Source of the DNA: a virus | Reading direction: 5' to 3' (one strand) | Length of the DNA: 64,000 nt | Virus record (IMG/VR): IMGVR_UViG_3300028920_000048 | Shown here: positions 10,119 to 62,511 of the stretch, piece after piece | Position numbering within the stretch: the stretch's first letter is position 1 | How the letters are laid out: each line of letters starts with the position of its first letter | Position numbers and translations under genes: made by a program | The notes under the pieces: model-generated | Databases searched by the model: none | The model's input: the letters and a program-made list of their open reading frames with translations, nothing else | Told to the model about the DNA's origin: nothing

Positions 10119-11176
10119 CGTTTGTACCCCCACGGGAGTCCATACGGGCACACAAAGTTGACACCTCCCTCGGTCGCAGGATAAAGCCTCAGAATGCCCT
10201 TCCGCCAGCCTATTCTGCGGCGATCCCTGCAAATCTGGCAACTCTTCCTCGCCTCGCATTCATCAGTGTCAAAAAAGGAATCAACAGCAACGGACTCGAC
10301 GGTCGTCTTGGGAACCTCTGGCATCTCAATTGGCACAGACTCGACTTTTTGAGCCGAGTCAACAGTCCTTTCATCTGGGTGTAAGACAGAAACCGGCTGA
10401 TCAGCGCTCAACTCATCCAGACCGGCTTCGGCATCCAGCCGACCTCCGATTTTCAACTTCTCGGACAAATCTAACAAATGATCGTATACAGCCAGGTCAT
10501 TCACATCTCCGCCCTTTTCGTTGCTTTGCTTATCTGACGGAGGCACCGCAAAAACAGCACCAAAAAGAGGTCCAACTGAAGCACGAACACTGTCCAAAGC
10601 ATCTACCATCTTCAAGCCGACAAAAGCTTCATTGAGCAAATCATGCTTCCTGGCCATAAGCATGAGCTTTTGAATGACGACTGGAACAGACTCGCCGCCT
10701 TTCTCTGGCGGAACCATAAGCTGAGCGTGCAAAGCTGCTCGAAGCAACTTGACGGCTTCCCTCGGCGAAGCCACAAGCACATATCGGTCAAAAACATCAC
10801 CAATATCAGCCGGACAAGCAACCTGAGCCCGTGGTCCGCCTCCGGCGATGAAACGATCCCCCAAGAGCTTCTTGCAGTGATCAATCAACGACTGACAATT
10901 GAAAAGCGGCTTACTGTTCCATCCCCCGCCCGCACAAGCATCACAAAAGCCTTCCTCGACCTTGACATCAAATCCTACCGCCCTTGACAACAGACCACAA
11001 TGCGTCGAACCGTTATGCCAACGACGAAGTACAAACCGACACTTGGCAGCCGGTCCAGCCCCGGAAGCAAACGGATTGTCCCCCGAAGGCTGGACCTTGT
11101 TGCCCTCGTTTCGCACCTGCTCACCAATCTTAGCAAGCATCTTCATCTTGTCCTCATTACCCTGATTTTCAGCCAT
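10115..11176 (-). CDS. Hypothetical protein with Cys-rich segments (possibly fibre-associated)
   Basis: 353-aa ORF with good RBS; C-terminal CEARKSCQIC...FVCPYG. Confidence 0.6.
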   Translation of the reverse strand: MAENQGNEDKMKMLAKIGEQVRNEGNKVQPSGDNPFASGAGPAAKCRFVLRRWHNGSTHCGLLSRAVGFDVKVEEGFCDACAGGGWNSKPLFNCQSLIDHCKKLLGDRFIAGGGPRAQVACPADIGDVFDRYVLVASPREAVKLLRAALHAQLMVPPEKGGESVPVVIQKLMLMARKHDLLNEAFVGLKMVDALDSVRASVGPLFGAVFAVPPSDKQSNEKGGDVNDLAVYDHLLDLSEKLKIGGRLDAEAGLDELSADQPVSVLHPDERTVDSAQKVESVPIEMPEVPKTTVESVAVDSFFDTDECEARKSCQICRDRRRIGWRKGILRLYPATEGGVNFVCPYGLPWGYKR

Positions 11177-12416
11177 TCCTAAAGTCTCCGTTCAGAATCT
11201 CATCAACAACCGATGTCAAGCCATACTTCTCGGCAATCGACATAACCTGACTCACTATTGTACCTATTTCGTGACCGCCATTCTCACCAGAGAGCTTCGA
11301 CTGCTCCACAAAAACATTCTTAAGAAATTTCGACGCAACTTCACTGCCCGAACGCTCCAAGTGCTGTCTAATCAATTCGTCCACTTCATCCCAATCAACT
11401 GGCACAACTATCCTTACGTCACGCACTAATGGAACCACAACATCCTTATTTCCGCCTTGAAAACTAGAACTAGAACTAGAACTAGAACTAGAACTAGAAC
11501 TAGAACTAGAACTAGAACTAGATGAGCCACAAGCCTTAACCGGTGGAACTACGGCTCCCTTACCTCCAGCACTAGAACAGGGACAATTAAAAGGACTACC
11601 TGGAAGACCGGGAGAACTAGAAGGACCAGAACAATCATCAATGCCTACACATTCTTCATTTGAGCGATCTAAATAGACATAAAAACAATATGGATCAGCA
11701 TAACTATAATAAAGCCATGTATTATAAGTTCTACTAGATTCTTCACAGACTAAATTACTATAATAGGGACCACCCCAACTATCTGTATCACAATCATAAG
11801 TTGCAGCCCATTCATAAACACATCGACCTGAAGGACAAGGACAAGCACTCGGGTCTGGATCAAGTGGCACAAAACTCGGAGTAGACGAACACTGAATGGC
11901 ACTCTCACATGGTTCACCGCAGTAATAATAATAGTATTCACAAGCACTTGACGAATAAACTGGGTCTAGCCAACCTTCAGAACTAACACAAGAATCACAG
12001 CCCTGAATTAACCAACCCACAGGTATAAAAGAACTCGTTTGACAATCATAAATTGTCAGATACTGCCAAATACACCGATTTTCAGCACTCTCTGAAGAAC
12101 TAGAACTAGATGAACTACATGAACATTCCAGATTTTGAACTCTTGTGTTAAAGTCAGTAAACGGCGTCAACGTAATACAGCTTCCATCATAATCAATATC
12201 TCCGCCATCACTGTTGATCGTGCAATCGTCTCCTTCAAGTGCTCGCAAATAACCAACCCAATTCTTAAATTTGCCATAAGCATCTGCGACACACTCACCA
12301 CCTGCAATAAACGCAAGATCAGAACTAATAGAACAACAACTACAAGAAGCTCTAAATGCCTCCAAATCTGAAAAATAGCCGTTAATCTGCGCTCTGTGAG
12401 TTTTAACACATCCCAT
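11169..12416 (-). CDS. Cys-rich, poly-Ser, low-GC protein (putative fibre or receptor-binding module)
   Basis: Two related Cys/Trp/Tyr-rich repeats (RCIWQYLTIYDCQT and RCVYEWAATYDCDT), a 22-Ser tract and AT-rich codons. Confidence 0.65.
   Translation of the reverse strand: MGCVKTHRAQINGYFSDLEAFRASCSCCSISSDLAFIAGGECVADAYGKFKNWVGYLRALEGDDCTINSDGGDIDYDGSCITLTPFTDFNTRVQNLECSCSSSSSSSSESAENRCIWQYLTIYDCQTSSFIPVGWLIQGCDSCVSSEGWLDPVYSSSACEYYYYYCGEPCESAIQCSSTPSFVPLDPDPSACPCPSGRCVYEWAATYDCDTDSWGGPYYSNLVCEESSRTYNTWLYYSYADPYCFYVYLDRSNEECVGIDDCSGPSSSPGLPGSPFNCPCSSAGGKGAVVPPVKACGSSSSSSSSSSSSSSSSSSSSSFQGGNKDVVVPLVRDVRIVVPVDWDEVDELIRQHLERSGSEVASKFLKNVFVEQSKLSGENGGHEIGTIVSQVMSIAEKYGLTSVVDEILNGDFRNG
11462..11521. 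repeat. (AACTAG)x10 hexamer microsatellite encoding poly-Ser
   Basis: Ten exact tandem copies read directly. Confidence 0.95.
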
Positions 12417-44528: not shown

Positions 44529-44755
44529 CCGCTATTGGACCTCTTAACAAGAAACCACACGAAACCCCCAACCAACGCCCATGCGCCAGCCGGTACGCCC
44601 AGCGCACAAAACAGAAACGGAATAACGAAACGCCTGAAAATGCGTCCATCAAGCTCCATATCGCCATCACCAAACATGCAAAAGCCTTTGTAGAAGATCA
44701 AACCGATCCCCACAATCGACAACACAAACAGCGACCCTCCAACGATCATCAACAA
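44525..44755 (-). CDS. Small membrane protein
   Basis: Two hydrophobic segments. Confidence 0.5.
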   Translation of the reverse strand: MLMIVGGSLFVLSIVGIGLIFYKGFCMFGDGDMELDGRIFRRFVIPFLFCALGVPAGAWALVGGFVWFLVKRSNSG

Positions 44756-45522
44756 TCCGGGTGTGATTCTACATCCTCCTTCTCGATTTGATCTATTCTA
44801 CTCTCAACCGTGTCAAGAAGTTCCCTCAATTCCGCAACAACCTTCCCAACAACACCTTCGATCTTCTCAATCTCTTCGCCGGAACAGTACTTCGCCAATC
44901 GAGTGCGCTCCCTGTCATCCCCAAGCGCCCTATGAACCCCGGTCCACAAATCAAAAGCACTACGATAAACTTTTCGCTCCTGACCAAGCTTTGTTAGCCC
45001 ATCCCGACGACACTTCGCTTCCATCGTCATGAAGTCCTCACACAAGCTTCCGTCTGGGTGTTTCGGTCTACCAAGGCTCTTAATCACGTCCTCGGGCACA
45101 TAAGGGCAAACAAAACAATGTCCATCGTGCATGTGCGCCGTACAAGTTAACCCATCTCTGCCCAAAACCTGACACCCGCACCATAAGTCCTTGGCGGTCA
45201 AAGCCGGAAACGGCTGCTTGCGATCATCTTCATTGCTGTTGATAAACCGTAGGACATCGTACCTGCAAAGAGACTTCTCAATCCATTCTATCGCCCGACG
45301 ACGACCCATAAGACAAAGCACGACCAACCCGGTACTTGGCGACTTAACGATCCAAACCGTGGACCGCGCCTGAACAAGCTTGTCATAGACATCCCTGCCA
45401 TCCTTCGGCAACTGCTTGACCAACACCGGCCAATCGTGTTTTACCAACGAAAAAAGAGCATCGGCAAACCGATGCTCCATCTCCTGCTCGATGAACGGTC
45501 TTTTCGCATTCTCGGTCGACAT
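44749..45522 (-). CDS. Hypothetical protein (Cys/His cluster)
   Basis: Long ORF; CGC..CTAH..C..C motif. Confidence 0.55.
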   Translation of the reverse strand: MSTENAKRPFIEQEMEHRFADALFSLVKHDWPVLVKQLPKDGRDVYDKLVQARSTVWIVKSPSTGLVVLCLMGRRRAIEWIEKSLCRYDVLRFINSNEDDRKQPFPALTAKDLWCGCQVLGRDGLTCTAHMHDGHCFVCPYVPEDVIKSLGRPKHPDGSLCEDFMTMEAKCRRDGLTKLGQERKVYRSAFDLWTGVHRALGDDRERTRLAKYCSGEEIEKIEGVVGKVVAELRELLDTVESRIDQIEKEDVESHPDC

Positions 45523-45589: not shown

Positions 45590-45680
45590 TGGCGGAGACG
45601 GGAGGACTCGAACCCCAATCCCTCATCAGGATCAATCGGTTTTCAAAACCGTCCCGGCACGCCCATCCGGTTCCGTCTCC
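45590..45680 (-). tRNA. tRNA-Ser(TGA) with non-canonical 8/4 (allo-tRNA-like) fold
   Basis: GGAGACGG/CCGTCTCC 8-bp acceptor, 4-bp T stem, AA connector, long V arm, G73, CCA; loop TT-TGA-AA. Confidence 0.8.
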
Positions 45681-45681
45681 G

Positions 45682-46173
45682 TTATTTTTTCTTGGCAACA
45701 AACTCTTTCAACATGCTGATGTTTCCCTGGGCCACATGCTCAATCCAGTCCATTTCGTCAACAGTTTCCGCCAGTTCAAAAGCCTGAAAATATAGCTTAT
45801 CGGCATAAGCACGTGCTCTGTTTCGTTTCTTGCGCTTCATCTCCTTCATCTCCTTCTTCAACCGCCGCAATTCCGATCTTTGTCTTTGTAGGACACTGGC
45901 TTTGTCATTGTGTTCCTTAATTCCATTCTCAGCCTCATTCCTGGTACGGAACACCGTTACTCCAGGTTTCAAAACATCGACCAATGCTCCACTATACATA
46001 ACGCCTTCCCGCGCTCCAGGAGGCACAAGCACACAACCCATTGGTCCGTCTTCTACCACTGCCTCCCTGAAGCTACGAATGCTGTATTGATCCTTAGCCT
46101 TGGGAGCCCACCACACGGTATCACCAATGTCCACATTCAGCTTACGCAAAACATTTTTTGCCCTGCTATTCAC
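45682..46173 (-). CDS. Hypothetical protein
   Basis: Intact ORF between tRNA genes. Confidence 0.6.
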   Translation of the reverse strand: MNSRAKNVLRKLNVDIGDTVWWAPKAKDQYSIRSFREAVVEDGPMGCVLVPPGAREGVMYSGALVDVLKPGVTVFRTRNEAENGIKEHNDKASVLQRQRSELRRLKKEMKEMKRKKRNRARAYADKLYFQAFELAETVDEMDWIEHVAQGNISMLKEFVAKKK

Positions 46174-46272: not shown

Positions 46273-46364
46273 TGGCGGAAAGGGAGGGATTTGAACCCTC
46301 GTGCCCCCTTTCGAGGACGCATGAATTAGCAATCCAGCCCGATTAGCCTCTCCGGCACCTTTCC
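46273..46364 (-). tRNA. tRNA-Ser(GCT)
   Basis: Canonical type II cloverleaf; loop TT-GCT-AA; GCCA end. Confidence 0.9.
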
Positions 46365-46378
46365 GTGATTGTCGAGTA

Positions 46379-46471
46379 TGGCGGAAGCGGTGGGACTCGA
46401 ACCCACAGCCCGTGGTTGCCCACGACCCACACGCTTTCCAAGCGTGCTCCTGATCCAGCCGGTTCGCTTCC
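46379..46471 (-). tRNA. tRNA-Ser(GGA), atypical (A8-A9, 6-bp anticodon stem)
   Basis: GCACGC-TT-GGA-AA-GCGTGT; long V arm; GCCA end. Confidence 0.85.
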
Positions 46472-46478
46472 GTGAATG

Positions 46479-46571
46479 TGGCGGAGGAGGTGGGACTCGA
46501 ACCCACAGCCCGCAGTTGCCTACGACCTACCTGTTTTCGAGACAGGCTCCTCATCCAGCCGGTTCTCCTCC
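46479..46571 (-). tRNA. tRNA-Ser(CGA), atypical; near-duplicate body of tRNA-Ser(GGA)
   Basis: GCCTGT-CT-CGA-AA-ACAGGT; GCCA end. Confidence 0.85.
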
Positions 46572-46579
46572 GCTCTCAT

Positions 46580-46882
46580 CTAATCCCTCTTGGGAACAAG
46601 ATCAAACCGACGTGACTTGAACTCTTCCAGTCGGATTTCCGGGCTGCTGGCGATCTCGAAAAGAGGAAACACGACCTTCTTTGGTTTCGGAATGAACACG
46701 AAATTATACGGATAGACAACCTTGTTCAACTCACGCCACAACCGTCCACACCTACGGACCCAATAATCACGTTCAGCCCGGTCTCTTGGAAGCAACACAC
46801 GAAGCGCCATTCCCAAAACCGACACACGTCTACCAAACCAAAGGATCATGTCTTTCTCTGCTTCAATGAAGTATATGTTCAT
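46580..46882 (-). CDS. Small protein carrying a 31-aa copy of a major capsid protein segment
   Basis: KPKKVVFPLFEIASSPEIRLEEFKSRRFDLV versus MCP KPKRVQFPLFEIASNPEIQLTEIKSRRFDLV; ATGA-coupled to the upstream gene. Confidence 0.75.
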   Translation of the reverse strand: MNIYFIEAEKDMILWFGRRVSVLGMALRVLLPRDRAERDYWVRRCGRLWRELNKVVYPYNFVFIPKPKKVVFPLFEIASSPEIRLEEFKSRRFDLVPKRD

Positions 46883-47376
46883 CTCTCCAAAACGTGCCAC
46901 GTCCAGCACTGCTCTCCGACATGCTCCGAACCTTCAATCCGAAAGCCATGTCTTAGGAACAACCTGATCGAGGCTTGGTTCATCGCCCAAATCCTCGCCA
47001 CGTGTGAACCCGGATACATCGCCAGTGCGAAGCTAAGCAACAAACTCCCGAAACCTTTACCCTGCTTGCCCTTGAAGACCGTAATGCCGGTGATGTAGTT
47101 AAACTTCCTTCGACCGAAAATCGACAGAAAACGCTTCAAAATATCAGCATCGTCCGTCTCCTCCATCGCCCGAAAAGCGGGCATCTTCATCCTCAAAACC
47201 TGAACATTCCCAATCCAGCAGTCGTCAGCCCCGACAAGAAGCCAACTATGAACACCCTCGTTGTATAACCGAAGATAAGAAGCTTCCGAAAACTGAGAAT
47301 GAGGCGGGTAACACTCCTTGTCTTGCTTCGACAAACGAGCCCAGTCGGAATCATTGTCCATCAGTGCGAAACGCAT
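46879..47376 (-). CDS. GNAT-family acetyltransferase
   Basis: ITVFKGKQGKGFGSLLL (motif A) and NQASIRLFLRHGF (motif B). Confidence 0.85.
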   Translation of the reverse strand: MRFALMDNDSDWARLSKQDKECYPPHSQFSEASYLRLYNEGVHSWLLVGADDCWIGNVQVLRMKMPAFRAMEETDDADILKRFLSIFGRRKFNYITGITVFKGKQGKGFGSLLLSFALAMYPGSHVARIWAMNQASIRLFLRHGFRIEGSEHVGEQCWTWHVLER

Positions 47377-47773
47377 CACGCCACCTCTCAGGCTGCATGG
47401 CAACAAATACAGTGTAACTGTCTATGTCCAAAAGACCGCCGCCGTCTGGATGAGGATCATGCACGACCTTGCCGTCACGACCGACGCAAGCGTGCATCAA
47501 ACCCCTCGGACTTGTGCCCGAAACGATGTAATAAGGACCAAACTCGCCATAAAGGCTAATCCAAGGAAACGGCTCTTCACAGCGAAAGTCGTGCAACCCA
47601 ACGCCGCAGTACCTCAAAAGCCACTCATTGCTGTCAGCAAACCACGTGTCGCTCGGGAAATCCACACAGAAGTTCGGCAAGTTACCAAGCGGAACTTCCA
47701 AGATTGAAGCCACGCAAGCTGCAAAACAGTCGCCCTTGCCGTCGCCAAACTTGGTCTGCATTACTGGCTTCAA
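47351..47773 (-). CDS. Papain/C39-like Cys-His peptidase-fold hypothetical protein
   Basis: GDCFAACVASIL...GLMHACV...HDPHP. Confidence 0.5.
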   Translation of the reverse strand: MKPVMQTKFGDGKGDCFAACVASILEVPLGNLPNFCVDFPSDTWFADSNEWLLRYCGVGLHDFRCEEPFPWISLYGEFGPYYIVSGTSPRGLMHACVGRDGKVVHDPHPDGGGLLDIDSYTVFVAMQPERWRDAFRTDGQ

Positions 47774-51061: not shown

Positions 51062-52177
51062 CTATGACTCCTTTCGTTTTCCTGACGGCAAAGCCAAGCC
51101 ACCTCTATGACCAACAACGTAATATTCTCGCATTGGATTAACCACCCAATGATCATCTTGATCTTGTTGAACCCACCCAGCCGATGGAGCCGATGGTACT
51201 TGTCCAGGACGAAGAAGACGCCAAGACCCGCCACCTGCCTTATCACTAACATAAATACTACAACCAGCAGCCCACAACTTCGAGGCCCTCACTCTAAGCA
51301 ACGGACGATCCCCTACTGGCAAATCATGACCACGCTCGTCCGCCCAAAACCTTCCTCCAGGAACCGGACCCTTTACTATTCTCTTACGTCCCTTCGGCAC
51401 ACCCGGATAACGAACAAGCCAAAAATCCCCGGCCATTCTCTCTGTTCCCAAAACCAAAAACTTAGCAACTTTAAGCAACCGTCTCGCCAGTCTGACATTG
51501 CCGTCAAACACTTGACAAGCATCAAAAGCCTGAACAAAACCATACCGAACATCCATACGTTTTTTGAGGGCAACACCTTCTGGAGTCATCATTCCCCACT
51601 GAACATTAGCCTTACCATACTCGTCATAAAGTTTCTTCATCAAGGCTTCGCCAATGCCTATACGACGATAGTTTTTGTTAACGAAGATATAGTTGACATG
51701 AATCTTGCCATCAAACTCGGAGTATTCCACGTAACCAAGCACTTTCCTGTCCGCTGCACTTGTCGCAGTCATGCAAAGATCAGTCTGCCCGTGATGCGAG
51801 CCCGTCACCTCTTCGTTGAACACCGGAATTGGTTGACTTTCAACACTAGGCATGAACTTTTTCAAGGCGTTTACAACAGTTTGATCAGCTTTCCCATGCG
51901 GACGATGCTTCCCAATCATCGGACGACCACCCTTCCACGCTGCAATACCATTTCCGCCCATCCAAAGACCGTCCAACGTTTTCCCGTCCGTATAGAGCTT
52001 CTTACTCTCGGCTCGCTTGCCGCCCAAAAACGCCTCAAGCACCTTCTTATCGCCCTTTGTCAACCGCACAAAAGCTTTCCTATCCTCTAAAAACCTCAGA
52101 ACAAACTTCAATTGCCTCAGCAACGCCATCCAAAGGCTCATCATGTTCAAGAGCCAACCGACGCAAAATCCAATCAC
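51062..52177 (-). CDS. Multidomain protein with a GNAT acetyltransferase domain and an internal leader motif (start probably GTG 52069)
   Basis: VNYIFVNKNYRRIGIGEALM (GNAT motif A); NVRLARRLLKVAKFLVLGT between domains. Confidence 0.75.
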   Translation of the reverse strand: MIGFCVGWLLNMMSLWMALLRQLKFVLRFLEDRKAFVRLTKGDKKVLEAFLGGKRAESKKLYTDGKTLDGLWMGGNGIAAWKGGRPMIGKHRPHGKADQTVVNALKKFMPSVESQPIPVFNEEVTGSHHGQTDLCMTATSAADRKVLGYVEYSEFDGKIHVNYIFVNKNYRRIGIGEALMKKLYDEYGKANVQWGMMTPEGVALKKRMDVRYGFVQAFDACQVFDGNVRLARRLLKVAKFLVLGTERMAGDFWLVRYPGVPKGRKRIVKGPVPGGRFWADERGHDLPVGDRPLLRVRASKLWAAGCSIYVSDKAGGGSWRLLRPGQVPSAPSAGWVQQDQDDHWVVNPMREYYVVGHRGGLALPSGKRKES

Positions 52178-53208: not shown

Positions 53209-55236
53209 TCACGGCTTCTGATACACCAGTATAGGTTCAAGGCGCACAGCCCCATCGAACACCGACTTGTACCTCATAGAGTGCGTGTCAACGTACCTGG
53301 CAACTTGACGCAATACTACCTGAGCATCATCAAGAAGCAAATACTTTCTGTCACCAATAGTCACATCAGCAATGTTCAGCACCAAATAACCACCAGATAC
53401 CAACAATCCAGCAGACTTAGTTATCAAACGCTCAAGAAACTTAACACGCCACTCATCATAAGTCGAATAACGGTTATGGCTTATACAATCATCGTCGCCA
53501 TACCACTCCTTCGTATAGTAAGGCGGAGACGTGAAAACCACATCATATTGTTCATCTCCAATATCCACATCCTCAAAAGCCCCGTACCTTATGTCCACCG
53601 TCTTTCCTGGAATATCCCTACTCAAAATGCACCGCATGTGCTTCAAGCCCTTCACCGTTTCCCCACAAGCATCTACACCTGTATAACTGCCAGCCTGCGA
53701 CACATAGAAGCCAAGCAACCGCCCCCCAAAACCAGCACACGGGTCTAACACGCTACCACCACTCGGACAGTACCTATCCCAAATCGCCTTAGCAATCGCA
53801 GGACGAAAATTGTACACACCACCAAATGACGAACGCATCTCATTTCGCAAAGCTGATGACGACACAGAGTCACGATACTTCAATGTCCTAACAACTGCCT
53901 TCTCAAGTAGCCCAACATTACCAAACACATTCAATGGACTCTTCCCGCCATTTCGATGAGCCCTCCATAACGACGGAAAAAAACACGCACAAACACTAGA
54001 ACCCGCATTGTAACCAGAATCTATTGGCTCATCCAAAATCACATCAGTCCCCCGAAGTCTCGCAACTTCAACTGCCCTGTCCTTTTTCTTCATCTTTGGG
54101 TAAGGAAATCCACGAATCTGCCACATTTTTGTTATCTTAGCAACCAAACACGAATCATCAGCATCAGATGCACCATAACGCCCAATCGAGCGATACACCG
54201 GTACAAGATCAACACAGGCGTTAAACGGAAGGCAAAAACGCAAACTAACGGGAACCTTGTACTGCATGGACTCATGTAGGTGCTCACCTATAACATCAAA
54301 AACTTTTTGCTTGTTATCCAACCACAAAATAACACCACCATCCGAACGCCACTGCACTCTCGTATCAAACGTAAACCGCCGGTTCAGACCATCAGCAATC
54401 AACTCAGCATCATCACGAAACGCATTGATACACAGTGTGAACCGCCCATCAAGACTGCAATCACTCAAATGTCCATCATCCATATACCAAACAGCCAACG
54501 AAAGAGGCGTTACATTGTCAATCATCCCTTCAGGAAATCTTTTCTTTCCACCCTCGGAATAAAACATCTCATAATATGGGACAAACACAGAATGAAAACA
54601 TGTCACAAAACACCTACCATGACAAACTCTATCATCACCAAGCACTTTTTCTGTTGCCCTCACGCGCTTAGAAAACGGTCTCAATATATCGCGTTTCCAT
54701 CTGAGATACAACTCCTGATTACAACTATGACCCTCTTTGAACCTCGCAACATCACCTGCCTTGCTGATATGCACATTCGCATCGCCAAGCAATGACCCAA
54801 CGACAATCTCGTGTTGACCCTGCGTCAGCGAGTTTGGCAAATCCGCTCGAATATGCTGCCCCTTCGACATTGCAACAATACCAAACTCCTTGAGCCGCGT
54901 CCGCACCAACATTCGACTACACCCAAACCGTTTTGCTAATCGACGCTCTCCCAAACCTTGATACAACTTCTCTAATTCACCCTTCGACACAGCATTGATG
55001 TCCTGACGTCCAGATCGTCTTGCCTTAGCAGCTATCCGATCACGAGCCTTTATCGTTACAATCCCATACTTCCTCCTGTAATAGCCAACAGCAACATCAG
55101 TCAACCCAAATCGCCCAGCAATCTCAGCATCGGATAACAACAACTCCTCGTACAGCTTTCTCAACACATCCTCCGCCAATCCGTGGTCCTTGTGTGTCCT
55201 CTTATCAGACATGGCATCTCCAATCAACTTAATCAT
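53209..55236 (-). CDS. Fusion of HTH repeats, LAGLIDADG endonuclease and amino-(N4/N6) DNA methyltransferase
   Basis: IVVGSLLGDANV and LAVWYMDDG (LAGLIDADG_2); VLDPCAGFGGRL (motif I) and VFTSPPY (motif IV). Confidence 0.8.
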   Translation of the reverse strand: MIKLIGDAMSDKRTHKDHGLAEDVLRKLYEELLLSDAEIAGRFGLTDVAVGYYRRKYGIVTIKARDRIAAKARRSGRQDINAVSKGELEKLYQGLGERRLAKRFGCSRMLVRTRLKEFGIVAMSKGQHIRADLPNSLTQGQHEIVVGSLLGDANVHISKAGDVARFKEGHSCNQELYLRWKRDILRPFSKRVRATEKVLGDDRVCHGRCFVTCFHSVFVPYYEMFYSEGGKKRFPEGMIDNVTPLSLAVWYMDDGHLSDCSLDGRFTLCINAFRDDAELIADGLNRRFTFDTRVQWRSDGGVILWLDNKQKVFDVIGEHLHESMQYKVPVSLRFCLPFNACVDLVPVYRSIGRYGASDADDSCLVAKITKMWQIRGFPYPKMKKKDRAVEVARLRGTDVILDEPIDSGYNAGSSVCACFFPSLWRAHRNGGKSPLNVFGNVGLLEKAVVRTLKYRDSVSSSALRNEMRSSFGGVYNFRPAIAKAIWDRYCPSGGSVLDPCAGFGGRLLGFYVSQAGSYTGVDACGETVKGLKHMRCILSRDIPGKTVDIRYGAFEDVDIGDEQYDVVFTSPPYYTKEWYGDDDCISHNRYSTYDEWRVKFLERLITKSAGLLVSGGYLVLNIADVTIGDRKYLLLDDAQVVLRQVARYVDTHSMRYKSVFDGAVRLEPILVYQKP

Positions 55237-59121: not shown

Positions 59122-62100
59122 TCAATCTAACGCACTCTGCACTATACGTTCTGCGATATCCGAAAGATGTTGACGGCGCAACTCTTCTCTGGCAAGCCGA
59201 ACTGCCATCATCCCCCCGCAATCCGCCACACGAAGCCCCCGAACCCTACTCGCATATCTCAAGCCACCACCCGTATATTCTCCAGCCGAAACAAGAACCG
59301 GCTGTGAATCTTCCCCAATAGAAACCAAGTGATTGATGACTGCACCGCGAAACGCCGGACTTTCAACCCATGAAGCTTCAATAAATCTCACAGATGTTGG
59401 ATCGCCAACTCGCTTCCCCGTGACGGGATCAATATAAGACCGGCCACAAAGCTCGGCAACAATCCGTCTGACGCCATTCTCGTCCTTGAAATACTCCCCG
59501 AGCTGATGTCTGACATGCTCGCACTCATCATTGTCGTCCAGAGACTCGTGCCCACACCTTGAGCATTGCAAAATCTCTGCAACGCAGTTATGCACAGCCA
59601 CGTCCCCAGCAATAAACGAGTGATCGCCAGCATCATTGACAACATGAAGATTGTTTACAAAATAACACCCACCCACGGGATCATTCGCTTTAACTCTGAC
59701 AAGCATATATCCATCAAAACACGAAATGCGTTCCTTCGACACTGGTTGTTGTCTAAATTTTCGTGTATAGCCTTCAAGTCGAATCGCCCAACTCTTACGT
59801 GTATTTACATGCCAGAAAGGCTTCCTGTCCTGCATTTTGTATGGACCCGAAACTGAAGCAGGCACACCAACGAAACGTAACATCGTCAAAACCTGTTGCG
59901 ACAAAAAAGGACTGGTCGACACCGTAGTAAAACGACTATCATCAACACGACAATGACCATCCCCATCAATGTAAGCTCCAATAATCTCACACAACGATTC
60001 ATCATCAAGAAGCAACACCTCCGAAGAAAACCGCTTCATATCACAGTGCTCACCACACATACTTTGCAACCAGACAGCCAAATCGCTATTATGCACTACA
60101 ACTCTTGTGCTCTTGCCACATTCACGATTTCTGGACTGTACGTACACTTTCTCTAGTTCAATACCTTCAGCATCAACACAAGACTTTACATCATCAACCA
60201 AATAACCTTCATCCTGCGAAAACGTAAACTCCACAGCCCGTGGCAAACTATGCTCATCTTTTTGAAGGTTCCCATCAGCCGCATACAATCCAAGCAGCCT
60301 ACAACGACTTTTCGCCCACACAGTACGCTCTTGCTCGGGACGACCAAGTGGAACAGCTACAAAATCTCCGACTCTAAGCTCTTCCGCCGCAACCCACTCA
60401 AATACCGGATGTTGCTCTTGCAAAACCGCAACAGATTGCACCTTGGGGTTTGTGTTGCAATGAGTCTGATAACAACTACTTGAACACCACTCTCTCATAA
60501 GTGTATCCAATGATCCCGCTCGTCCTCTTGGTAGTTCCTTACCACAACCCTTGCACTTGTCATAACCTCTCAAAGTCCAATACGGGTGCTCTTTAGTCAC
60601 ATAAGTATCTGGACGACCCACCAATGACAGCCTTCGCAATTCTCCATCCGAACACAAACGCCTACGCTTTGATTCAACCGTACCGACACCGCCAGTATGC
60701 GTAACCACGCTCGCCCCAATAGGGACATCTTCCACACACATCTGTGTGCCATCAGCAAGTCTCACAAGCGTACCATCAAGATGGCAGCCCATCGAAAGGG
60801 TGCTCAACTCCCCACTGGCAATGCGACGACACAAACCAATGTGAATACGATCTGTTTGGACAAGGATATCACAATACCAGACATTAGCCTTGCCGCCTTT
60901 CTTCCCCTCATAAACCACCGGACGAAGCACTGCGTCGATCACTCGACCCTTGCTCAATTCCGGGATTTGGACATGTTCATAGTAATTGTAAGCTCCGATG
61001 AAGGAGCGAAACGTCGACAACAATACCGGATTACTCCATGCGTTTGCATTGCTGTTGACAAGTTCATCACACGGAGACTTGATGTAGTAACCGTTGTCCT
61101 CGGTCTCTACAGAGCAAACAATCGTACAGTTATGCGTCGCCACACCTTCCACGACATAACTTTCATCTTCTTCAACCGAGAGATTATGAATATAACCTTC
61201 ATACTGGGAAACACCCTTTTTGTTGACCCTCGTAACGACTCGGCCAGCAACTTTCCGTCTACGACACACTTTGTCAGCGACAACAATCGTGGACTTGCCC
61301 ACCCAATTTTCAAAACCAAACTCCTCGGAGTTTTTAGCAATGAAAGACGGCATAATCTTCAACGTGTATTCTGTCCTCTTCCTATGCTTTGGTCTCCGAT
61401 ACAAATTCGACTCTATACCACAATTAGACGCAACGATTTGAGCCTGTTCCGCCAACGTCTGTGATACTGTCACGCCGCTATCGCCCCGAAACCAACATGC
61501 CAACAACTCTCTCTGTTCGGCCAAGTCCCAATCAAAAACTTCTCTGGCGATCCTTTTCCCATAACACTTAGAGCCTCCAAGAGCCAACAACTTATCTGCA
61601 AGCACCTTGTCCTTGACATCAATAACAACGCAATTAGAGTCGGGTCGCCTATCCGCAATGTGTGGTTTAGCACCGGTCAAACGCTCAAGAATACTGCACA
61701 CCTCAGTAACATATTCTTCTTCGTCCCCGGAAAACGCAAAGAAAATGCGATTAAATACACCATAATCACTCGCCTGCCTGCAAGACGTTTGCGAAACCCA
61801 ACCCTCGGCAAGATAATAGCCAAGCAATCTCGCCATGTCACTTCCAACATTGACCCCACAACTTTTGTAAATACCCAAAGCCACGTAATCGCCTACATCA
61901 AGGCAACATGAGTCCCGCCACTCAAAGGAATCCAAATCATGCCGAAACTGATCAAGTCTCTGTGCATAATCTGGACTATGCGGTGAACCATAAACCCTGT
62001 TCTGATGTCCAAGAACAAACGATCTTTTCCTCTTACAGTTTACGGACGCCCCGCAACCACAAACACAAGTCTTATGCACTTTGACTGCATAAAACGGGTG

Positions 62101-62511
62101 CTCTGGTGTAACAGAAACCGTATTTGGGACACCAGAGAACTTAAAATCAAACACGATACCGGAGTACGGTCGTTTCGAGATGGCTCGAACACGCCGTGAA
62201 GCTCCGGTATGAGAAATTACAAAATCGCCAACCTTTACTTCCTCAATGGCTTTATACGTCCCATCAGCCATAAGAACCCGCATTCCGGGAACAAAACAGT
62301 GTGTATAGAGATGGTCCCTGACCTTGATCTTGCCCCAATCAAGGTCAATGTTGCGCTGCGAAGCAACACGCTTGCCCTTAGAGCGAGAAATCAAACTCCA
62401 CTCCCGAGCCGGATCGTACAAGATATTGGCTACGGGGAGATTCAAAGAAAAAGTTCTGGACTTCCTTGCCGCCGCCAATTGACACGCACCACTTATGCAA
62501 CGTCTGGACAC
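59122..62511 (-). CDS. Prohead maturation protease with two inteins (339-aa extein)
   Basis: Extein motifs YYEH, LSMG-C, CxxC..C.H and FIEASWVESPAF; upstream of scaffold and MCP. Confidence 0.85.
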   Translation of the reverse strand: MSRRCISGACQLAAARKSRTFSLNLPVANILYDPAREWSLISRSKGKRVASQRNIDLDWGKIKVRDHLYTHCFVPGMRVLMADGTYKAIEEVKVGDFVISHTGASRRVRAISKRPYSGIVFDFKFSGVPNTVSVTPEHPFYAVKVHKTCVCGCGASVNCKRKRSFVLGHQNRVYGSPHSPDYAQRLDQFRHDLDSFEWRDSCCLDVGDYVALGIYKSCGVNVGSDMARLLGYYLAEGWVSQTSCRQASDYGVFNRIFFAFSGDEEEYVTEVCSILERLTGAKPHIADRRPDSNCVVIDVKDKVLADKLLALGGSKCYGKRIAREVFDWDLAEQRELLACWFRGDSGVTVSQTLAEQAQIVASNCGIESNLYRRPKHRKRTEYTLKIMPSFIAKNSEEFGFENWVGKSTIVVADKVCRRRKVAGRVVTRVNKKGVSQYEGYIHNLSVEEDESYVVEGVATHNCTIVCSVETEDNGYYIKSPCDELVNSNANAWSNPVLLSTFRSFIGAYNYYEHVQIPELSKGRVIDAVLRPVVYEGKKGGKANVWYCDILVQTDRIHIGLCRRIASGELSTLSMGCHLDGTLVRLADGTQMCVEDVPIGASVVTHTGGVGTVESKRRRLCSDGELRRLSLVGRPDTYVTKEHPYWTLRGYDKCKGCGKELPRGRAGSLDTLMREWCSSSCYQTHCNTNPKVQSVAVLQEQHPVFEWVAAEELRVGDFVAVPLGRPEQERTVWAKSRCRLLGLYAADGNLQKDEHSLPRAVEFTFSQDEGYLVDDVKSCVDAEGIELEKVYVQSRNRECGKSTRVVVHNSDLAVWLQSMCGEHCDMKRFSSEVLLLDDESLCEIIGAYIDGDGHCRVDDSRFTTVSTSPFLSQQVLTMLRFVGVPASVSGPYKMQDRKPFWHVNTRKSWAIRLEGYTRKFRQQPVSKERISCFDGYMLVRVKANDPVGGCYFVNNLHVVNDAGDHSFIAGDVAVHNCVAEILQCSRCGHESLDDNDECEHVRHQLGEYFKDENGVRRIVAELCGRSYIDPVTGKRVGDPTSVRFIEASWVESPAFRGAVINHLVSIGEDSQPVLVSAGEYTGGGLRYASRVRGLRVADCGGMMAVRLAREELRRQHLSDIAERIVQSALD
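59587..60786 (-). mobile_element. Intein 2 (400 aa) with LAGLIDADG endonuclease
   Basis: Begins CHLDGT after SMG and ends AVHN before C; LLGLYAADG and IIGAYIDGDG. Confidence 0.9.
61129..62298 (-). mobile_element. Intein 1 (390 aa) with LAGLIDADG endonuclease
   Basis: Begins CFVPG after YTH and ends ATHN before C; LLGYYLAEG and LLACWFRGDS. Confidence 0.9.

Follow-up and report, generated by a model that had tools for sequence, protein, structure and literature searches.

The tRNA gene and its setting

The window analysed here is a stretch of 64,000 nucleotides from the IMG/VR virus record IMGVR_UViG_3300028920_000048, in which genes lie on the minus strand throughout, GC skew is strongly negative, and the predicted proteins include phage tail-tube, LAGLIDADG and intein matches. 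Between 45590 and 50568 the minus strand carries 12 tRNA genes according to ARAGORN; four of them are serine tRNA genes (anticodons UGA, GCU, GGA and CGA), which together cover all six serine codons. The gene at 45590-45680, called as tRNA-Ser(tga) on the minus strand, is 91 nt long with the encoded CCA counted in. Its parts and the three other serine tRNA genes are listed below with the evidence for each (8/4 and 7/5 denote the base pairs of the acceptor and T stems).

45590..45680 (-): whole tRNA-Ser(UGA) gene (ARAGORN; 86.5 bits with family model R1, 86.9 bits with leave-one-out model R2)
45673..45680 (-): acceptor stem, 5' strand GGAGACGG, 8 nt, with G8 at 45673 (full pairing with 45594-45601)
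45594..45601 (-): acceptor stem, 3' strand CCGUCUCC, 8 nt (sequence; pair covariation across the family)
45671..45672 (-): AA linker, with A8 replacing the usual U8, followed by A9 (sequence)
45654..45670 (-): D arm, stem CCGG/CCGG and 9-nt loop AUGGGCGUG containing GG (sequence)
45634..45653 (-): anticodon arm, with G.U, A-U, a bulged A (45636), then CGGU/ACCG (family covariation for the outer pairs)
45643-45645 (-): anticodon UGA, within the loop UUUGAAA
45617..45633 (-): long variable arm, 5-bp stem AUCCU/GGGAU and 5-nt loop (RNAalifold consensus; R2 structure)
45602..45616 (-): T arm, 4-bp stem GGGG/CCUC (one G.U) and loop UUCGAGU (sequence)
45590..45593 (-): discriminator G73 (45593) and encoded CCA (45590-45592) (sequence)
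46273..46571 (-): the three other serine tRNA genes
46273-46364 (-): tRNA-Ser(GCU), canonical 7/5 with U8
46379-46471 (-): tRNA-Ser(GGA), 7/5 with A8 A9
46479-46571 (-): tRNA-Ser(CGA), 7/5 with A8 A9

The variable arm, T loop, D-loop GG, G73 and CCA of the UGA gene follow the pattern of class II tRNAs, and the marks of serine identity are present in full (G1-C72, G2-C71, A3-U70, C11-G24, G73 and the long variable arm). The anticodon loop has the normal 7 nt, including U33 and A37, while the variable arm measures 17 nt with a 5-bp stem, opening with a near-invariant G and ending with a near-invariant U before the T stem. Four base pairs of the D arm are certain and a C follows the GG; the stem can be extended by A-U and U.G around a GGGC tetraloop, provided that one G bulges, and it may in that form resemble the Sec-like D arm described for the (8/4) class, which has a long stem closed by a tetraloop, and Y20. 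This anatomy agrees with a preliminary description of the locus, which had claimed AA in place of U8, an extendable D stem, a long variable arm with G73, and an anticodon that reads UCA as serine and makes no opal suppressor. Opal suppression is indeed ruled out by the anticodon UGA, which reads UCA.

The 5' end of the tRNA lies one base past the stop codon of the ORF at 45682-46173, and the next ORF begins about 70 bases downstream. A scan of the window for promoters and terminators returned counts not above those of shuffled sequences, and a 9/12 promoter-like match that ends at 45684 was disregarded. Some 110 bases downstream of the tRNA, at 45455-45478 on the minus strand, there is a strong terminator-like hairpin (10 pairs, then a T run). 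It falls within ORF 44749-45522, 44 bases in from the start predicted for that ORF; either the ORF begins later than predicted, or the tRNA transcript stops at the hairpin.

The UGA gene encodes the only 8/4 serine isoacceptor of this phage. Its GGA and CGA siblings show D-stem mismatches (G.A or G.G) and a six-pair anticodon stem, and both score below the Rfam tRNA cut-off with a weak match to tRNA-Sec. Relatives of this GGA/CGA type are present in an IMG/VR contig (L126, 4566-4650) and in the 636-kb uncultured phage LR756504 (L128, 2999-3088). The true 5' end of tRNA-Ser(CGA) is at 46571, as given by GGAGGAG/CUCCUCC pairing, the start drawn by ARAGORN being three bases late (46568-46571, minus strand).

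Other genes of the window, all on the minus strand, include two for GNAT acetyltransferases (46879-47406 and 51062-52177), which lie on either side of the tRNA arrays. Charged tRNAs are acetylated by some GNAT toxins; nothing in the window ties these two genes to tRNA. In the ORF at 53209-55236 a LAGLIDADG endonuclease domain is joined to DNA methylase domains, and the ORF at 59122-62511 (1129 aa) carries a Hint/intein with a LAGLIDADG insert.

The register of the acceptor-T branch

The acceptor-T branch of the UGA gene contains 12 stacked pairs, the normal total, split 8 + 4 and not 7 + 5. Read from the sequence, GGAGACGG and CCGUCUCC form an acceptor stem of eight Watson-Crick pairs. In the 7/5 register, by comparison, G8 is left unpaired, the connector becomes the three nucleotides G-A-A, and U49.C65 is a mismatch, so that the mismatch and the 3-nt connector attributed to the 7/5 fold in the preliminary description are both to be seen in the sequence. 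When the two registers are imposed on one and the same cloverleaf, 8/4 is favoured over 7/5 by 3.3 kcal/mol. The unconstrained minimum-energy fold of the single sequence is not a cloverleaf; it retains the 8-bp acceptor helix, and its z-score is only -1.27. With the general tRNA model of Rfam (RF00005) the gene scores below the gathering score, and its top match in the Rfam clan is tRNA-Sec, at 37.8 bits versus a family cut-off of 47. The gene thus has neither the 7-bp acceptor, the 5-bp T stem nor the U8 of a canonical 7/5 tRNA, nor a score at the gathering level.

ARAGORN draws the gene as 7/5 with a mismatch, and the GGA and CGA serine tRNAs of the same phage, which are clearly 7/5, have the same AA linker. 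Both points favour the reading of an ordinary 7/5 tRNA-Ser, in which the U49.C65 mismatch arose by chance, one extra nucleotide was added to the 8-9 connector, and the eighth acceptor pair is a coincidence. The energy difference speaks against this reading, and the pairing of positions 8, 49 and 65 in relatives of the gene bears on it directly.

No real homologue came up when the tRNA was compared by BLAST with 50,697 records of cultured phages, and the neighbouring protein (44749-45522) has no relatives in IMG/VR. A first, loose DNA pattern yielded mostly chance matches among the matches listed, and a second recovered only relatives of the 7/5 A8A9 sibling type. The working pattern was anchored on the AA linker, on the CCGG D stem, on U33 and A37-A38 in the anticodon arm and on the T loop, with no constraint on the acceptor stem or on positions 49 and 65; it retrieved real relatives from IMG/VR, GTDB genomes and metagenomes, including 41 distinct sequences in the same register. 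Membership of this set was decided by acceptor pairs 1-7 together with the four inner pairs of the T stem, positions 8, 49 and 65 being unused. Thirty-nine sequences were aligned with MAFFT (alignment A1), and a family covariance model then brought in more members from the same contigs whose different D stems had put them outside the reach of the pattern, giving 64 distinct sequences. The alignment of these 64, A2, was fitted to the covariance model and so favours the model structure, a bias of which the MAFFT- and anchor-based counts are free. Model R2 was built from 57 sequences, the window's own not among them, using the structure predicted by RNAalifold. An unpublished genome (G003, a Phycisphaerales MAG, locus L153) supplies one row of A1 and its own genome-search matches; it is absent from A2, A4 and R2, and no conclusion rests on it. 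The nearest relative is about 70% identical to the window gene, and the comparison therefore includes no true orthologue.

Across the 41 relatives, positions 8 and 65 are paired in every case (GC 20, AU 9, UA 7, CG 3, GU 2), positions 49 and 65 in only 13, and position 49 is U in 35 of the 41 whatever stands opposite. The 8/4 structure is paired in 95.4% of the cells of A1 (n=39), where the column pair of the eighth acceptor pair (8:84) is never broken (GC 18, AU 9, UA 7, CG 3, GU 2; unpaired 0/39) and that of the extra 7/5 T-stem pair (68:84) is broken in 28 of 39. The enlarged set of 64 distinct sequences gives the same picture, with pair 8:65 kept in 64/64 (GC 32, UA 13, AU 12, CG 5, GU 2; unpaired 0) and pair 49:65 broken in 45/64. 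RNAalifold, applied to A1, predicts the 8/4 cloverleaf de novo. The covariation check set beforehand, which asked whether the 7/5 register was favoured, therefore came out for 8/4, and with the de novo consensus it upholds the preliminary claim that an 8-bp acceptor with a 4-bp T stem fits better than 7/5.

An ordinary 7/5 tRNA-Ser can still draw on the 19 of 64 relatives in which 49:65 could also pair, so that both registers are available. Against it, every relative pairs 8:65, using all four Watson-Crick types plus G.U, U is kept at position 49 regardless of position 65, and both RNAalifold and folding energy choose 8/4; we regard it as highly improbable. The 8/4 fold, which we prefer, is reflected also in the model scores: R2 matches the window gene at 86.9 bits (E about 6e-18) with all modelled pairs standard, and the three sibling serine tRNAs at 38-43 bits. 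By this model-based measure, the match of the window gene to the family is more than chance.

The alignments reveal further regularities of the family. The anticodon stem consists of six pairs with one bulged 3' nucleotide and no position-26 spacer; the base after the D stem and the one next to it pair beyond the 3' bulge, and the two outer pairs occur as GC 14, AU 10, CG 7 and GU 2 in one case, and as CG 13, AU 9, GU 3 and others in the other. The window gene likewise has an anticodon stem of more than five pairs, with G.U and A-U outside its bulged A. Nearly all members have A as the first base of the linker, and the D stem covaries in the wider family (for example CCAG/CUGG and CCAC/GUGG), two more pairs around an RGGN tetraloop often being possible in the D loop. 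The commonest state of T-stem pair 2 is G.U, and the discriminator is G in 27, U in 11 and A in 1.

Relation to described tRNAs and distribution of the family

Serine tRNAs of this shape have been described before. The paper that defined allo-tRNAs (Mukai et al. 2017, Nucleic Acids Res 45:2776, PMC5389517) describes phage tRNA clusters that contain (8/4) tRNA-Ser with serine anticodons, and places (8/4) tRNA-Ser in phages, proteobacteria and rumen Clostridia. The preliminary description had placed 8/4 allo-tRNAs in bacterial metagenomes, which is correct as far as it goes and understates what was known, since the phage tRNA clusters were already in that paper. The 8/4 shape is rare, and by its sequence the window gene is a divergent further member of a group described for phage serine tRNAs in 2017. 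By description, it resembles the published (8/4) tRNA-Ser in its 8-bp acceptor and 4-bp T stem, its long variable arm and G73, its lengthened anticodon stem with a serine anticodon, its position in a phage tRNA cluster and possibly its D arm, which is Sec-like in the published class; the nearest relative retrieved is about 70% identical. The 8 + 4 split, the long variable arm with a discriminator that is G73 or U73 in the class and G73 here, an anticodon stem of more than five pairs and the serine anticodon, which mark that class, are all found in the window gene. Unlike the published cases, only the UGA isoacceptor is 8/4 in the window, and there is no adjoining (8/4) tRNA-His, the tRNA-His of the window being 7/5 with G-1:C73.

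Three other groups invite comparison. With the allo-tRNAs of non-serine anticodon (from Acidobacteria and others) the gene has in common the 8/4 scaffold and the serine identity marks; those tRNAs are, according to PMC5389517, predicted missense or nonsense suppressors or are inactive, whereas the window gene carries a cognate serine anticodon and would leave the code unchanged. With bacterial tRNA-Sec (8/5, RF01852) it has in common the 8-bp acceptor, the six pairs of the anticodon stem, the long variable arm and G73, and the D arms are similar. It differs in its score (37.8 bits, under the cut-off of 47), its anticodon and its branch, and a tRNA-Sec role is ruled out by the anticodon UGA (not UCA) and the branch of 12 bp (not the 13 bp of 8/5 or 9/4 tRNA-Sec). 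With canonical class II tRNA-Ser (7/5, RF00005) it has in common the identity elements, variable arm, T loop and predicted function, and it departs from them in the 8/4 split, A8 for U8, the missing position-26 spacer and the bulged six-pair anticodon stem. Genuine 8/5 tRNA-Sec genes with UCA anticodons were caught by the same pattern in a Myxococcales MAG (L140) and an Alphaproteobacteria MAG (L146); they have the AA linker and CCGG/CCGG D stem of the 8/4 serine family, and this common D arm hints at common ancestry or convergence.

Family members on viral contigs lie within large tRNA arrays (24 ARAGORN calls in L129 and 26 in L131), and the arrays of relatives hold 20 or more tRNAs. Complete 8/4 serine sets (UGA, CGA, GGA and GCU), arranged as four tandem genes, are frequent, examples being the four contigs that follow.

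L129, 7767-8198: tandem four-gene 8/4 serine set
L131: tandem four-gene 8/4 serine set
L132, 4815-5970: tandem four-gene 8/4 serine set
L147, 166-541: tandem four-gene 8/4 serine set

Mixtures of 8/4 and 7/5 serine tRNAs, as in the window, are also found in phages L134 and L126. Bacterial carriers comprise MAG contigs of Planctomycetaceae, Phycisphaeraceae, Akkermansiaceae and Polyangiaceae, as well as Oceaniferula spumae, whose genome is complete; the titles of the records suggest carriers in Planctomycetota, Verrucomicrobiota and Myxococcota. In each of the four bacterial genomes searched, the 8/4 copy is an extra alongside a full canonical serine set. The O. spumae NT6N chromosome, for instance, has an 8/4 tRNA-Ser(GCU) among at least 9 other tRNAs (L156, 7350-7440), in an array that is probably a prophage or island, and a canonical set of all four serine isoacceptors elsewhere in the genome. 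In the unpublished MAG G003, contig C102 carries a second 8/4 tRNA-Ser(GCU) (L262, 684-770) adjoining an 8/4 CGA copy, with one U.U mismatch in its acceptor stem.

Of the four genes that make up each complete set, ARAGORN recovered a single one in L131, L132 and L147, and none in L129. Because ARAGORN missed most relatives and the Rfam tRNA model fails on the window gene, censuses of phage tRNAs would under-count serine tRNAs, and apparent gaps in arrays where serine tRNAs seem to be missing may be false; the family alignment and model offer a means of finding 8/4 serine genes. To the published class the present analysis adds a family-wide covariation test, the bulged six-pair anticodon stem (set beside that class by description), carriers in Planctomycetota, Verrucomicrobiota and Myxococcota, and this under-detection by ARAGORN.

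Predicted function

As far as can be judged from its letters and those of its relatives, the window gene is a genuine gene for a serine tRNA of 8/4 fold, carried by a large uncultured phage, and its product probably works as a serine elongator of the published (8/4) tRNA-Ser / (8/4) allo-tRNA class. Since the gene starts one base past an ORF stop and ends about 70 bases before the next ORF, it is probably co-transcribed with the surrounding minus-strand genes and cut out of the transcript, RNase P presumably cleaving its 5' end. Charging would fall to the seryl-tRNA synthetase (SerRS) of the host, an enzyme whose recognition of tRNA depends on the long variable arm, on G73 and on the first pairs of the acceptor stem, and not on the anticodon. 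Among 64 window proteins scanned with Pfam there was no SerRS, no CCA-adding enzyme and no tRNA repair enzyme, and charging by a phage enzyme is accordingly unsupported within the window. EF-Tu would be expected to carry the charged tRNA, because the branch has 12 bp and not 13 as in tRNA-Sec. The tRNA would then decode UCA, plus UCG and UCU by wobble at U34, and with the GGA, CGA and GCU tRNAs it would give the phage a complete serine-decoding set of its own. The elements that SerRS recognizes (long variable arm, G73, G1-C72, G2-C71, A3-U70 and C11-G24) are cited in PMC5389517, according to which, and to the review PMC7609411, 8/4 and 9/3 allo-tRNAs with serine identity insert serine in E. 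coli. The identity marks, the 12-bp branch and serine insertion by other 8/4 members in E. coli together lead us to the reading of a normal serine elongator.

Serine accounts for 6.8% of codons in the window genes and UCA for 11% of serine codons; the ORF at 11169-12416 reaches 17.8% serine, chiefly through AGU and UCU, and no special demand for UCA is evident in the codon use of the window.

Some allo-tRNAs are inactive in E. coli and may have roles outside translation, according to PMC5389517, and the window gene might by analogy encode a tRNA-shaped RNA that does not decode, such as a decoy, a regulator or a decaying gene, comparable to the inactive allo-tRNA(UAU) group that is linked to toxin-antitoxin loci. 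We think this unlikely: no stem is broken, the anticodon loop has the normal 7 nt, U33 and A37 included, both the T loop and the GG of the D loop have their canonical form, and the gene encodes its own CCA. Moreover, UGA fills the sole position of the serine box left by the three neighbouring serine tRNAs, and the family as a whole keeps serine anticodons (55 of 57 tabulated members) and complete sets, which is the pattern of decoding tRNAs and not of decoys.

A different possibility accepts that the tRNA decodes serine and seeks the reason for its shape in defence, the 8/4 fold being kept as protection of the phage's serine supply from host enzymes that cut or modify tRNA. The shifted junction, A8 and bulged anticodon stem could make it a poor substrate for enzymes that disable host tRNA-Ser. 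The distribution of the class lends this some plausibility, as it is found almost only in phage or prophage-like tRNA arrays, the 8/4 copy stands beside a full canonical serine set in the bacterial genomes checked, and several phages have replaced all four serine isoacceptors by 8/4 forms. The anticodon loop, the usual target, is however ordinary, the same phage also keeps 7/5 serine tRNAs, and no tRNA-Ser-directed nuclease or defence system was identified here, all of which makes protection, in our judgement, rather improbable as an account of the shape. A broader version, to which we give only a small chance, holds that 8/4 serine tRNAs form a phage-borne, self-contained serine-decoding kit, found in bacteria only as surplus copies within tRNA arrays, its shape kept to escape host enzymes during infection, with the UGA tRNA the one protected in this phage.

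Under the preferred reading of a serine elongator, the window gene entails no change of the genetic code and no new mechanism identified; it would be an example, backed by covariation, of bacterial translation tolerating an acceptor/T junction shifted by one pair, in a family of 8/4 tRNAs that large phages appear to spread. Two members of that family have non-serine anticodons, GAU (an Ile codon) at L180 670-758 and GAG (a Leu codon) at L198 11322-11410, and going by these anticodons they are of the mistranslating allo-tRNA type.
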